From Shigella phage ESh23, in the sequence record ON528733: a stretch of DNA of 40,156 bases; one strand, written 5' to 3'. This document shows, in pieces, positions 9,786-27,067 of this stretch. Position 1 is the stretch's first letter. Every line of letters begins with the position of its first letter. The notes under the pieces are model-generated. The model did not search any database. It was given only the letters and a program-made list of their open reading frames with translations, and had not been told where the DNA came from. The position numbers and the translations under genes were made by a program.

Positions 9786-9830
9786 TAGACTCAAGGTCAT
9801 TACCACTATGTGTAGTGGCCTTTATGATTA
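9786..9830 (+). promoter_or_regulatory. conserved hairpin element (RNase III site, R18.5 position): AGACTCAAGGTCAT-stem-GGCCTTTATGATTA
   Basis: Element repeated at 19949..19991 and 27027..27067; inner stem CCACTA/TAGTGG; position matches T7 R18.5. Confidence 0.4.
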
Positions 9831-9885
9831 ACACACACTACGGGCGGCGACGCTACGTGGATTCTGAGAAACGAGGAGGGCAACT

Positions 9886-10335
9886 ATGCTCGAACTTTTA
9901 CGTAGATGCGCACCTTGGCTGGTGGCAGGACTCCTGTTCTGCTCAGGTTACTGGGTGGCAGACAATAAGTGGGAGGCGAAGGTAAGCAATGAGTACATCA
10001 CGAAACTTGAGGCACGAGAGAATCAACGGGCTGCTGTCCAAGGTGAAATCGACAAAGTGTCAGCAGAGTGGCAAGACAAGATGTCCGCGCTGGAAGGCTC
10101 TACTGATAGGATTATTGCTGACCTTAACCGCGATAACAAGCGGCTGCGCATCCGAGTCAAACCCACCAGTGGCACAGTCCAGACTGACGGTCGATGCGTC
10201 ATTGATGGTTACGCCGAACTTGACGAACGAGATGCTAAGCGTCTTATCGCCATCGGACTGAAAGGAGACGAATGGATTAAGGCCCTCCAGAAGACCGTGA
10301 GAGCCATGCAGCAAGAGAAGGAGGTGAAACCTTGA
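9886..10335 (+). CDS. i-spanin (Rz-like, T7 gp18.5-like), 149 aa
   Basis: N-terminal TM segment plus coiled-coil; matches recalled T7 gp18.5 ([24 protein letters not shown]). Confidence 0.85.
9989..10261 (+). CDS. o-spanin (Rz1-like, T7 gp18.7-like) embedded in the +1 frame of the i-spanin gene; true start probably internal
   Basis: Embedded ORF with lipoprotein-type signal and lipobox LTAITSGC. Confidence 0.55.
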   Translation: MSTSRNLRHERINGLLSKVKSTKCQQSGKTRCPRWKALLIGLLLTLTAITSGCASESNPPVAQSRLTVDASLMVTPNLTNEMLSVLSPSD

Positions 10336-12095
10336 GTCAAGACTTAGCGGCGCGTCAGGCGCTTATGACTGCACGTATGAAGGCAGACTTCGTGTTCTTC
10401 CTGTTCGTTCTGTGGAAAGCTCTGTCACTTCCGGTCCCGACTCGCTGTCAGATTGACATGGCGAAGAAACTATCGGCTGGGGACAACAGGCGTTTCATCT
10501 TGCAGGCGTTCCGTGGTATCGGGAAGTCCTTCATTACGTGCGCCTTCGTGGTCTGGAAGCTATGGAATAACCCGGACTTGAAGTTCATGATTGTGTCGGC
10601 CTCAAAGGAACGAGCCGATGCTAACTCCATCTTCATCAAGCGTATCATCGACCTGATGCCTCAGCTCCAAGAGTTGAAGCCTAAGCAGGGACAGCGAGAC
10701 GCAGTAATCAGCTTTGACGTAGGGCCTGCCAAGCCTGACCACTCTCCGTCGGTTAAGTCCGTTGGTATCACTGGTCAGTTAACTGGTAGTCGTGCTGACA
10801 TCCTGATTGCCGATGACGTAGAGGTCCCCGGTAACTCAGCTACTCAGGCGGCTCGTGACCGACTGTCAGAGCTGGTGAAGGAGTTCGACGCAATCCTGAA
10901 GCCGGGTGGTACGGTTATCTATCTGGGTACGCCTCAGACCGAGATGACCCTGTATCGACAGCTTGAGGGCCGTGGCTACTCAACTACCATCTGGCCTGCT
11001 CGCTATCCACGCGATGAGAAGGACTGGAAGTCTTATGGCGACCGTCTGGCTCCGATGCTTCAGGCCGAGCTTGAGTCTGACCCTGAGGGCTACTACTGGA
11101 GACCTACCGATGAGGTTCGCTTCGATGATGAGGACCTGAAGGAACGTGAGCTGTCCTACGGTAAGGCTGGCTTCGCTCTACAGTTCATGCTCAACCCGAA
11201 CCTAGGGGATGCCGAGAAGTACCCTCTGAAGCTGCGTGACCTTATCGTAGCGGACTTGGACCCTGAGTCTAGCCCTATGGTCTACCAGTGGCTTCCGAAC
11301 CTTCAGAACAAGCGTGAGGACGTTCCTAACGTTGGACTCATGGGTGACGCCTACCACACGTATCAGACTGTAGGTTCTGCCTTCAGCTCGTACACCCAGA
11401 AGATTCTGGTCATTGACCCTAGTGGTCGTGGTAAGGATGAGACCGGGTATGCGGTGCTGTATCAACTCAACGGCTACATCTTCGTGATGGAAGCTGGTGG
11501 TATGCGTGGTGGTTACGAGGACTCAACGCTGGAAGCTCTGGCGAAGATTGGTCGCAAGTGGAAGATTAACGAGTACGTCATTGAGGGTAACTTCGGTGAT
11601 GGCATGTATCTCGAATTATTCAAGCCTGTAGCGGCCCGTATTCACCCGGCAGCAGTGACTGAGGTCAAGAGTAAGGGCCAGAAGGAACTCCGCATCTGCG
11701 ACGTTCTGGAGCCTATCATGGGGTCTCACCGACTCATCGTGAACTCCTCGACCATTGTGTCTGACTACCAGACTGCCGCTGATAATGATGGAGTCCGCAA
11801 CCCTATCTACTCACTGTTCTATCAGATGACCCGTATAAGCCGTGAACGTGGAGCCTTGGCTCACGATGACCGACTCGATGCTCTGGCTATCGGTGTGCAG
11901 TTCTTCGTAGAGTCTATGGCGAAGGATGCCGTAAAGGGACAGCGTGAAGTAACCGAGGAGTGGCTGGAGGAACAGATGGAGGACCCACGGAAAGGCTTTA
12001 AGTCCATCGAGACTGACTATTGGGACAATGGGGTCCGGGTCCAGTTCAATACAGATGACGACTTGGGCTTAGGGTCCTACGTCCAGTTCCACTAA
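10332..12095 (+). CDS. terminase large subunit (T7 gp19-like), 587 aa if TTG start
   Basis: Near-collinear with recalled T7 gp19 ([23 protein letters not shown], [41 protein letters not shown]); AAGGAGGTGA SD before TTG at 10332 (alternative ATG at 10368). Confidence 0.93.
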
Positions 12096-12190
12096 CCTAA
12101 TGAATACCTACGCATGAAATCTGCATGTATAAGCAGTAAGTAGTGCGTTAGGTATCTCTCGTAACTTAATGATTCTAAAGGGAAATGGAC

Positions 12191-24695: not shown

Positions 24696-26399
24696 ATGTC
24701 ATATGAAGACCAAGAGCAGGACGATAGCGTCTTCCTCTACCACACCGAGTGTCCAGACTGCGGGTCTTCGGATGCCAATGGTGTTTACTCAGACGGACAC
24801 ATGTATTGCTTTGCGTGTGACCCGTCAGTCGCTTGGAAGAAGGGCGACATGGAATTGACAGAAGGTTACACGCCTTCAGGAGGTAAGAAGCAAGTGAGTA
24901 ACCTGTTAACTTGGGGTGAGAACTCAGGACGTTACGTCCCTCTCCCGGCTCGTGGACTATCGGCTGACATCTGCAAGAAGTACAGCTACTGGGTAGGCAT
25001 GATGCAGGGCAAGATGGTACAGATTGCGGACTACTACGACAGGTCAGGGACCAAGGTCGGACAGAAGGTTCGTGACGCAGACAAGAACTTCACAGCCATC
25101 GGTAGCGTGAAGAACGACCTGCTGTTCGGCTCTCAGCTCTGGTCCGGCGGCAAGAAGATTGTCATAACCGAAGGCGAGATTGACTGCCTGTCGGTAGCTC
25201 AGGTGCAGGACGGTAAGTATCCGGTGGTATCTCTCCCGTTAGGCGCGAAGTCTGCGAAGAAGACACTTGCAGCGAACCTTGAGTACCTCGACCAGTTCGA
25301 AGAGATTATCCTGATGTTCGACATGGATGAGCCGGGACGCGAGGCTGTAGAGAAAGGTGCTCCAGTCCTCCCCGCTGGCAAAGTTAAAGTCGCGTTCATC
25401 AATGGGTATAAAGACGCCAACGCTGCACTTCAGGCCAAGGACTTCAGGGCTATTCAGGATGCAATCTGGAATGCTAAACCTTTCGTCCCGGCTGGGGTGG
25501 TGAGCGCCAAGTCTCTGAAGGACAGGACCCGCGAGGCAATGCTGAAGGCTGAGACTGAAGGTCTCCTCTTCTCGTCCTGTACCACACTCAACGCGATGAC
25601 CCTAGGTGCGCGGTCTGGTGAGCTTATCATGGTGACTTCAGGGTCAGGCATGGGTAAGTCCACCTTCGTGCGTCAGCTCCTCCTAGAGTGGGGCAGACAG
25701 GGCAAGCGTGTAGGCATGGCGATGCTGGAGGAAGCTGTTGAAGAGACAGTGCAGGACCTCATAGGTCTTGACAATAACGTCCGTCTCCGTCAGTCCAAAG
25801 AGCTGAAAGAGGCAATCCTTCAGGACGGTCGATTCGACGAATGGTATGACAAACTGTTCAACGACGATAAGTTCCACCTGTACGATTCATTTGCGGAGTC
25901 AGAAGAAGACACCCTGTTCGCCAAGCTAGGCTACATGGTTGATGGTCTGGACTGCGATGTTATATTGCTGGACCACATCTCAATCGTGGTGTCTGGCATG
26001 GAAGATAACTCAGATGAGCGTAAGACCATCGACCGAATCATGACCCGTCTCAAGAAGTTTGCCAAGACGAAGGGTGTGGTTGTCGTGGTCATCTGCCACC
26101 TGAAGAACCCGGAGAAAGGTAAGTCACATGAAGAAGGTAGACCAGTTTCGATTACTGACCTTAGAGGGTCTGGCGCTTTACGTCAGCTTTCTGATACTAT
26201 TATTGCCTTGGAGCGCAATCAGCAAGGTGATACTCCTAATGTCGTTCAGCTTCGTCTGCTTAAGTGTCGCTTTACGGGTGATACCGGGCTGGCTGGACAC
26301 CTTGAGTACAACAAGCTCACGGGCTGGCTCGAACCGACTATCCACACTGGTGGAGGCGGAGAAGAGGATAGCGGCTCGTGGGAAGACCAAGACTTCTAA
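24696..26399 (+). CDS. DNA primase/helicase (T7 gp4-like), 567 aa
   Basis: N-terminal zinc-binding CPDCGSSD...CFAC; TEGEID primase motif; helicase Walker A GSGMGKST; ICHLKNP; [28 protein letters not shown]. Confidence 0.97.
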
Positions 26400-26478
26400 C
26401 TGGCAGTCATTTGACGAGTGGCAAGAACTGAACAGACGTGACGTTGCCAACTATAAGAACTTTATGGAGGACCGATAG
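26128..26478 (+). CDS. alternative-frame ORF overlapping the 3' end of the primase-helicase gene (116 aa, two hydrophobic segments); uncertain
   Basis: ORF with upstream AAAGG SD; extends 79 nt beyond gp4 stop and ends on the GTG start of the next gene; may be a frame artefact. Confidence 0.25.
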
Positions 26479-27011
26479 TGAGAAACTTAATCAACGGTAA
26501 GACCCTGACCGAGGTGCAGCTTGAACTTGGCCCGAAGGAGGGACTTGAGGTCTTCACCTCCCGCTGCACTGGTCGGACTTTGGGTCGGGCACTACTGTTC
26601 ATATCTACAGCTATGGCCCAAGGGTCCATCGACATCGGGCCGCTACGCTCTAACTTGGGAGACCAAGAGATTGATAGCGTGAAGTATCAAATCACACAGC
26701 GTCTAGACCAGATGGGCCTCGTTGGGTTCAAGCTGGAAGGAGACGTTCTGTCCTATTATCCATTTGAGGAGTACCAAGATGTTAAAGAGGTTGTGCGAGA
26801 AGTTACAGTCCAAGTATCACCTTTCGCTGGCGAAGTGGTATCACCACGAAGCTACAGTGTTGAGCAACATCCTGAAGGACCAGCGGTTCCAGTCGGTAGC
26901 ATGGAACAAAGCTACCCAGAAGTGCGCGTATCATCTGGCGAGAGTCCTTTAGTAGAACCGATGGAGGTCATAGAGCCGTTGGTCCCAGACATGACTCCGC
27001 CTAAGGCTTAA
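26478..27011 (+). CDS. hypothetical protein, 177 aa (T7 gene 4.3-4.7 position), GTG start
   Basis: GGAGGA SD 7 nt upstream of GTG; ends at the promoter before the DNA polymerase gene. Confidence 0.6.
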   Translation: MRNLINGKTLTEVQLELGPKEGLEVFTSRCTGRTLGRALLFISTAMAQGSIDIGPLRSNLGDQEIDSVKYQITQRLDQMGLVGFKLEGDVLSYYPFEEYQDVKEVVREVTVQVSPFAGEVVSPRSYSVEQHPEGPAVPVGSMEQSYPEVRVSSGESPLVEPMEVIEPLVPDMTPPKA

Positions 27012-27027
27012 CTATCACTGTAGGATA
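27008..27027 (+). promoter_or_regulatory. phage RNAP promoter (phi4.7 position): TTAACTATCACTGTAGGATA
   Basis: Consensus with G at -2. Confidence 0.6.
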
Positions 27028-27067
27028 GACTCAAGGCCATTCACTTCGAGTGGTCTTTATGATTAGA
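27027..27067 (+). promoter_or_regulatory. conserved hairpin element (RNase III site, R4.7 position)
   Basis: AGACTCAAGGCCATTCACTTCGAGTGGTCTTTATGATTAGAC; third copy of the family. Confidence 0.4.

Follow-up and report, generated by a model that had tools for sequence, protein, structure and literature searches.

Predicted RNase III processing signals of the T7 type at gene junctions of Shigella phage ESh23

The sequence of Shigella phage ESh23 (record ON528733; 40,156 nucleotides [nt], hereafter called the window and analyzed at its full length) represents the complete genome, in circularly permuted form, of a relative of phage T7 that is K1F-like (Kayfunavirus). We investigated seven structured elements that lie at gene junctions of this genome. 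These elements are very probably ribonuclease III (RNase III) processing signals in polycistronic phage mRNAs, homologous to those of T7. Sequence identity with T7 sites, the fold, covariation of both stems, conservation of the junctions in relatives and the presence of a gp0.7-type kinase gene directly support this reading. An earlier note on the window had proposed equivalents of the T7 sites R18.5, R1.1, R4.7 and R0.3-R1, and this assignment was borne out by identity with T7 sequence, by the matches of our covariance model in phage phiYeO3-12 and by the flanking genes. T7 sites of this kind have been known since the 1970s-80s. The sites described here are thus new instances of long-known T7-type signals, and the finding is an ordinary one.

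Three of the elements carry the sequence that we call family 1:

9775..9843 (hairpin core 9780-9836), + strand: predicted family-1 RNase III site, R18.5 equivalent; covariance model R1, 65.2 bits, E = 3e-15

19937..20002, + strand: predicted family-1 RNase III site, R1.1 equivalent; covariance model R1, 63.5 bits; fold z = -4.47

27015..27078, + strand: predicted family-1 RNase III site, R4.7 equivalent; covariance model R1, 56.7 bits; fold z = -2.32

The 5' half of family 1, AGACTCAAGGYCAT, was matched exactly at 9787, 19949 and 27027, and the 3' half, GGYCTTTATGATTA, at 9817, 19976 and 27052, all on the + strand. These are the three places named in the earlier note, which had put the first of them one base early, at 9786. 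When up to two mismatches were allowed, the 5' and 3' patterns gave 11 and 4 matches, respectively, compared to 0.65 and 0.17 expected, and none of 100 shuffles reached these counts. The family-1 sequence, ACUCAAGGYC…GGYCUUUAU|GAUU (the vertical line marks the cut), is the same as that of T7 R1.1, R0.5 and R18.5. The R18.5 equivalent (fold, -20 kcal/mol; z = -3.65) is flanked by the small terminase gene (9518-9781) and an Rz-like spanin gene (9886-10335), and alignment to T7 position 5887 places its predicted cut after 9825 (CCUUUAU|GAUU). A sigma-70-like sequence, TTACCA-17-TATGAT, is also found inside this site (9800-9828), the conserved TATGAT being its -10 element. The R1.1 equivalent begins at +1 of the phage promoter at 19931-19946, upstream of gene 1.1 (20021-20200) and of gene 1.2 (20205-20468), which encodes a dGTPase inhibitor; it was kept in all nine Kayfunavirus relatives checked, and its predicted cut falls after 19984. 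The R4.7 equivalent, with a predicted cut after 27060, lies directly 3' of the phage promoter at 27010-27025 and directly 5' of the DNA polymerase gene (27082-29253). At the same place, before gene 5, phiYeO3-12 has an annotated R4.7.

We then compared these sequences with T7 itself. In the T7 record NC_001604, ACTCAAGG…GGCCTTTATGATT occurred at 862-894, 1437-1472, 5857-5891, 13884-13896, 18511-18567 and 36826-36860. We took the T7 cuts to be at 890 (R0.3), 1468 (R0.5), 5887 (R1.1), 13892 (R4.7), 18563 (R6.5) and 36856 (R18.5) (Dunn & Studier 1983). These coordinates were checked against the sequence only, since the T7 records NC_001604 and V01146 are without R-site features. The T7 motifs bracket the cuts, with …CCUUUAU|GAUU… at 5887, and ACTCAAGG…GGCCTTTAT|GATT is carried at the positions of R0.3, R0.5, R1.1, R4.7, R6.5 and R18.5. 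All six of these T7 sites have the identical core ACUCAAGGYC–variable hairpin–GGYCUUUAUGAUU with a 4/5-nt internal loop. Among them, R1.1 RNA is the model substrate of the Nicholson laboratory.

The four remaining elements are found in the early region, three of them as family 2 and the last as a third variant, additional to those of the earlier note:

13578..13662, + strand: predicted family-2 site, R0.3 equivalent; fold -36.4 kcal/mol, z = -4.12

14457..14518, + strand: predicted family-2 site upstream of a 115-aa early gene (14535-14882); covariance model R1, 34.5 bits, E = 1e-6

14895..14957, + strand: predicted family-2 site, R0.7 equivalent, upstream of the kinase gene (14975-15709); covariance model R1, 32.5 bits

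15699..15761, + strand: predicted third-variant site; covariance model R1, 25.4 bits, E = 3e-4

Family 2 matches T7 R1, which reads CUUACAGGUCAUC…GGUGGCCUGAAU|AGG. Indeed, R1 is presumably cut at 3138, where T7 has CTTACAGGTCATCTGCGGGTGGCCTGAAT|AGG, a family-2 sequence, and the site carries CTTACAGGTCATC…GGTGGCCTGAAT|AGG. According to the T7 record, R1 and R18.5 also contain minor E. coli promoters, C (3113) and E (36836), respectively. In the window, the family-2 13-mer ACTACAGGTCATC was matched exactly at 14471 and 14909; the earlier note had found the same two copies, its positions 14465 and 14905 being the starts of the lower stems. A third copy at 13640, which it had considered partial, turned out to be a complete site, ACTACAGGGCC…GGGTCCTGACTGATAGTCACT, whose upper stem is long and branched; the ocr-like gene (13680-14186) follows it. 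Its predicted cut falls after 13648. The search of the window with covariance model R1 did not recover this copy because of a 46-nt insertion in the upper stem, and its assignment is based on the fold and on comparison with K1F, which has a short-stem version at this position, and with two IMG/VR relatives, which have the long version. The copy at 14457-14518 folded at -21 kcal/mol (z = -3.39), has the same core as T7 R1 and would be cut after 14500. For the R0.7 equivalent, the predicted cut falls after 14939, and compensatory upper stems were observed in relatives, e.g., GGTCTCTTGAGCGAGAGGCC in phage Pisces. As had been proposed, the family-2 copies lie just 5' of the ribosome-binding sites (RBS) of early genes, ending 5-25 nt ahead of the RBS and start codon (ATG at 13680, 14535 and 14975).

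The third variant reads GAGUGAUAG-ACGA-GAGGCCACU…AGUGGUCUC-AAAGA-UUAUUUCUC and folded at -21.1 kcal/mol (z = -3.74). It overlaps the stop codon of the kinase gene and precedes an RBS and the ATG at 15776, with a predicted cut after 15743. We found it kept in eight relatives; in K1F and Ro103C3lw, the upper stem shows compensatory changes.

Folding of all seven elements yielded a lower stem, an asymmetric internal loop and an upper stem, with z values of -2.3 to -4.5 in six of the seven sites. In the consensus structure, the lower stem has 7 bp and the upper stem at least 9-10 bp, with a 4/5-nt internal loop between them. Hairpins that are G+C-rich and intergenic, like these, could also serve to terminate transcription or to pause the RNA polymerase of host or phage, and a scan for terminator-like sites caught 9803-9818 through its CCTTTATGAT tail. 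However, no real U-run follows any of the stems, and terminator-like sites were rarer in the region than in shuffles (9 versus 14.2). Moreover, termination would be senseless at two of the sites, since these are located at +1 of phage promoters, and the same sequences in T7 are cleavage sites and not terminators. We consider the probability of a terminator or pause function next to negligible.

Covariation across related phages was investigated using hairpins collected from IMG/VR. A scan with the pattern ACTCAAGG–N10-34–CTTTATGATT returned 133 instances with 68 distinct cores, mostly on contigs of ~40 kb, in which the upper stems vary widely yet stay complementary. The family-2 pattern TACAGGTN{7,37}GGCCTGA lacked specificity, most of the IMG/VR contigs that it matched being unrelated; family-2 homologues were taken from a regular-expression search of retrieved loci and from the early regions of relatives. 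An alignment of 36 distinct hairpins (A1), which included the three window copies, T7 R1.1 and T7 R0.5, showed pairing in 96.4% of cells under the proposed structure, compared to 26-54% in controls with slid partners. Changes on both sides of a pair were observed in 70 cells of A1 versus 18.8 in shuffles, and RNAalifold independently found the same two helices in this alignment. Fold prediction and covariance, a check named in the earlier note, thus gave stable folds in six of the seven sites and covariation of both helices at a level that none of 500 shuffles reached.

A covariance model (R1) built from A1 recovered six sites in the window, all on the + strand (65.2, 63.5, 56.7, 34.5, 32.5 and 25.4 bits), and nothing else above 12 bits. 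In T7, its six best matches were R0.5, R1.1, R6.5, R18.5, R4.7 and R0.3, with partial matches on R1.3 and on the T7 site R1. As an independent benchmark we used the phiYeO3-12 record (AJ251805), in which ten stem-loops are labeled "putative RNase III site"; the eight best matches of the model were eight of these ten. Searches against Rfam 15 gave no match at the gathering score in the whole window and none at E ≤ 1 in 13400-20100. K1F and the early regions of eight further Kayfunavirus phages have the same elements at the corresponding junctions, and compensation was seen within the stems, for example, GAGGCCGTCGACTGATAGGTGGCCTC in K1F.

The covariation also bears on the notion that the repeats act as DNA, as recombination hot spots at module boundaries or as weak host promoters, with an incidental RNA fold. 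Such a role would fit with their location at gene-module junctions beside conserved phage promoters, with the sigma-70-like match inside the 9800-9828 element and with the minor promoters C and E of the T7 record inside R1 and R18.5. However, the compensatory changes keep pairing, including by G-U pairs that form only in RNA of the + strand (UG:30; UG:19-25, two stem positions), and all copies are on the transcribed strand. A function at the DNA level is therefore extremely unlikely.

Several points weigh against the RNase III reading. None of the Kayfunavirus records examined annotates RNase III sites; the relatives infect Enterobacteriaceae. In A1, 9 of 17 pairs were changed on both sides; the columns of the loop and of the first three stem pairs had been set by the scan pattern and are uninformative, and the informative pairs are those of the distal upper stem and of the lower stem. 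In a second alignment (A2), which comprised 44 hits in 12 phages, both sides were changed in 13 of 16 pairs; these counts lean toward the structure because A2 was fitted to the model. The R0.7 equivalent (14898-14960 as folded) gave -19.4 kcal/mol and z = -1.24, no better than shuffles. The score of the third variant is weak (25 bits), and its loop, ACGA/AAAGA, is without a tested T7 counterpart. Finally, that the elements are cleaved, at which bonds, and how this would affect the stability and translation of the mRNAs, is carried over by analogy, for ESh23 as for any Kayfunavirus.

The mechanism that we propose follows that of T7, in which a long early precursor from the host polymerase is cleaved at five sites by RNase III, and in which later transcripts of the T7 polymerase are processed as well (PMC4858673). 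R1.1 is cut at one bond, and the T7 kinase phosphorylates RNase III, which increases kcat about five-fold (PMC4858673). Internal loops confine cutting to one strand and leave a 3' hairpin that protects the RNA upstream of it, and base-pair sequence is read by E. coli RNase III in a proximal and a distal box (PMC1540722, PMC3867540). The proximal box comprises 4 bp and the distal box 2 bp (optimum, UA/UG), and G-C or C-G at proximal position 2 is an antideterminant. A promoter adjoining a cleavage site was described as common in T7 (PMC6938266). In ESh23, each element would form a hairpin of ~20 bp with lower and upper stems split by the asymmetric 4/5-nt internal loop. Host RNase III would bind the upper stem via base pairs of the two boxes and, because of the internal loop, would cut a single bond, in the 3' strand only (…UAU|GAU…). 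The upstream message would keep a protective 3' hairpin, and the downstream message would gain a short, defined 5' leader just ahead of the RBS. Turnover by RNase III would probably be boosted by the phage kinase, the gene for which is encoded within the early region:

14975-15709, + strand: gp0.7-type protein kinase gene; PHROG 15752, E = 2e-113

Recognition by RNase III through the proximal and distal boxes and the internal loop would account for the conservation of primary sequence. With the boxes numbered as the text of the source implies, the second upper-stem pair was A-U in 41 of 41 sequences, and the AUU/AGU stretch of R1.1 at this position was kept in two of the three family-1 copies. 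The earlier note had taken the conserved primary sequence as a hint of a separate protein-binding role; since the recognition features of RNase III predict such conservation, no extra binding protein is needed.

Three loop variants (ACUC/UAUGA, ACUA/GAnUGA and ACGA/AAAGA) were observed, and each has its own base pair at the foot of the upper stem: A-U (family 1), C-G (family 2) or G-C (family 3). Moreover, at a place where the window carries family 2, phage GW1 has a site resembling family 1. The foot-pair swaps and this replacement indicate that the "families" are at least three sequence variants of one structure. The earlier note was thus right in describing conserved structured elements; the division into two separate families did not hold. 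The same comparison bears on whether the conserved loop or stem binds a protein different from RNase III, of phage or host origin, or represents a translational operator, with cutting secondary or absent. The internal loop of family 1 (ACUC/UAUGA) and the first stem pairs are invariant, and each site is found just ahead of an RBS, as would be expected of such an element. However, the invariance of the family-1 loop in A1 is partly a product of the search pattern, three loop sequences occupy the same structural position, and conservation is already explained by box reading and by the role of the loop in single-strand cutting. One sequence-specific partner is disfavored in addition because a family-1-like site replaces family 2 in GW1, and we regard another binder as very unlikely.

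Within the RNase III reading, the variants are distributed unevenly: the junctions that precede gene 1, in the early transcript made by the host polymerase, all carry family 2 or 3, and family 1 is found at the junctions of genes 1.1, 5 and 18.5. The three loop/stem variants might conceivably not be interchangeable, differing in RNase III reactivity, cleavage pattern or response to the kinase and thereby creating a timing hierarchy, or the invariant loop might bind a second factor. We consider this an unlikely, speculative extension.

The earlier note had also placed the first half of family 1 just after the promoter at 16410. This isolated 5' half motif, GGACTCAAGGTC, is present at 16407-16418 on the + strand, at +1 of the promoter at 16394-16409 upstream of the RNA polymerase gene. 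As an RNase III site it was rejected: a pattern search found no 3' arm nearby, covariance model R1 gave no match there in the window search, and folding produced only a 4-bp GGUC/GACU hairpin. In K1F-type relatives, GGACUCAAGGUCU pairs with AGACCAAAGAGACUU in an imperfect hairpin, and the half copy of the window looks like a decayed version of it. The half copy is enclosed by a perfect 11-nt inverted repeat, TATCACTAAAG/CTTTAGTGATA (16397-16407 / 16451-16461), which competes with a local 8-bp hairpin. Its 5' arm is formed by the core of the promoter that precedes the RNA polymerase gene, and both arms would be present only in read-through transcripts. In ESh23, the repeat may correspond to T7 R1 and form exclusively in RNA that the host polymerase makes by read-through.

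Further hairpins were observed near other phage promoters. At 24640-24680, directly 3' of the promoter at 24627, a hairpin, GGGATGAGACCATGAGTCTTGTCCC, is followed by TTTGTTCGCATT. This region has CCCTTTGTTCGCA in common with T7 R3.8 and with the annotated R3.8 of phiYeO3-12, and is therefore likely to be RNase III site number eight, though of another type. Long stems surround the promoters at 31175 (stem region 31128-31215, z = -5.1) and 39461 (39442-39492, z = -4.2). T7 R6.5 and R13 have the same promoter-enclosing architecture, in which both arms occur only in read-through transcripts. The promoter ahead of the capsid gene gives a transcript that starts with a hairpin, GGGAGACCACGAGTATGACTCAAGGTCTCC (34993-35040), which resembles the 5' stem-loop of T7 phi10 and has ACTCAAGGTC in its 3' arm.

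As for the genomic setting, all long reading frames of the window are on the + strand, and the gene order of T7 is kept (ocr-like gene, gp0.7-type kinase, gene 1.2, DNA polymerase, small terminase and Rz-like spanin), with the RNA polymerase gene ending at 19169. The early region is 88-94% identical to those of Kayfunavirus phages such as Klebsiella SAKp10309, Enterobacter EP1, and Cronobacter Dev2 and GW1. Arrays of short CCTACAGTC-type repeats at ~12900-13250 mark the genome-end region and are followed by strong sigma-70-like early promoters, e.g., TTGACA-18-TAGTAT at 13441-13470. The position of these repeat arrays and early promoters, at ~12900-13470, identifies the window as a permuted whole genome. 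The phage promoter AACTATCACTATAGGA occurs 12 times in the window. In GW1 (~3500-3590) and Ro103C3lw (~2470-2560), the promoter core upstream of gene 1 is AAACCCTCACTATAGGA, and the window has AACTATCACTAAAGGA; this difference suggests a switch of polymerase-promoter specificity within the genus.

Taken together, the analysis provides seven predicted mRNA processing points, probably ten, for ESh23 and its unannotated Kayfunavirus relatives. Such annotation can be used to define transcript ends, to interpret RNA-seq data and to engineer the phage. Because no Rfam 15 model matched the sites, covariance model R1 could be useful for marking RNase III sites across T7-like genomes. The understanding of RNase III and of T7 biology is unchanged, and the effect of the RNase III cut on translation is already known in T7.

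Compared with phiYeO3-12 (AJ251805), whose stem-loops are likewise only predictions, the same junctions are occupied (R0.3, R0.45, R1.1, R4.7 and R18.5, plus R3.8, R6.5 and R13), and covariance model R1 detects sites in both phages. T7 R1 and the "R1" that precedes the RNA polymerase gene in phiYeO3-12 and T3 have YUACAGGUCAUC…GGUGGCCUGA and the overall fold in common with family 2. In contrast to T7 R1, family 2 of ESh23 precedes genes 0.3, 0.5-like and 0.7 and not gene 1, and its 3' loop reads GAnUGAU instead of GAAUAGG. The sites ahead of gene 1 are all family 2 or 3 in ESh23, whereas T7 R0.3 and R0.5 are family-1-like. The upper-stem tips and the lower stems also differ from those of T7, with compensatory changes, as does the Kayfunavirus promoter. 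In both phages, sites lie before genes 1.1, 18.5 and 4.7/5, and two of them abut phage promoters.

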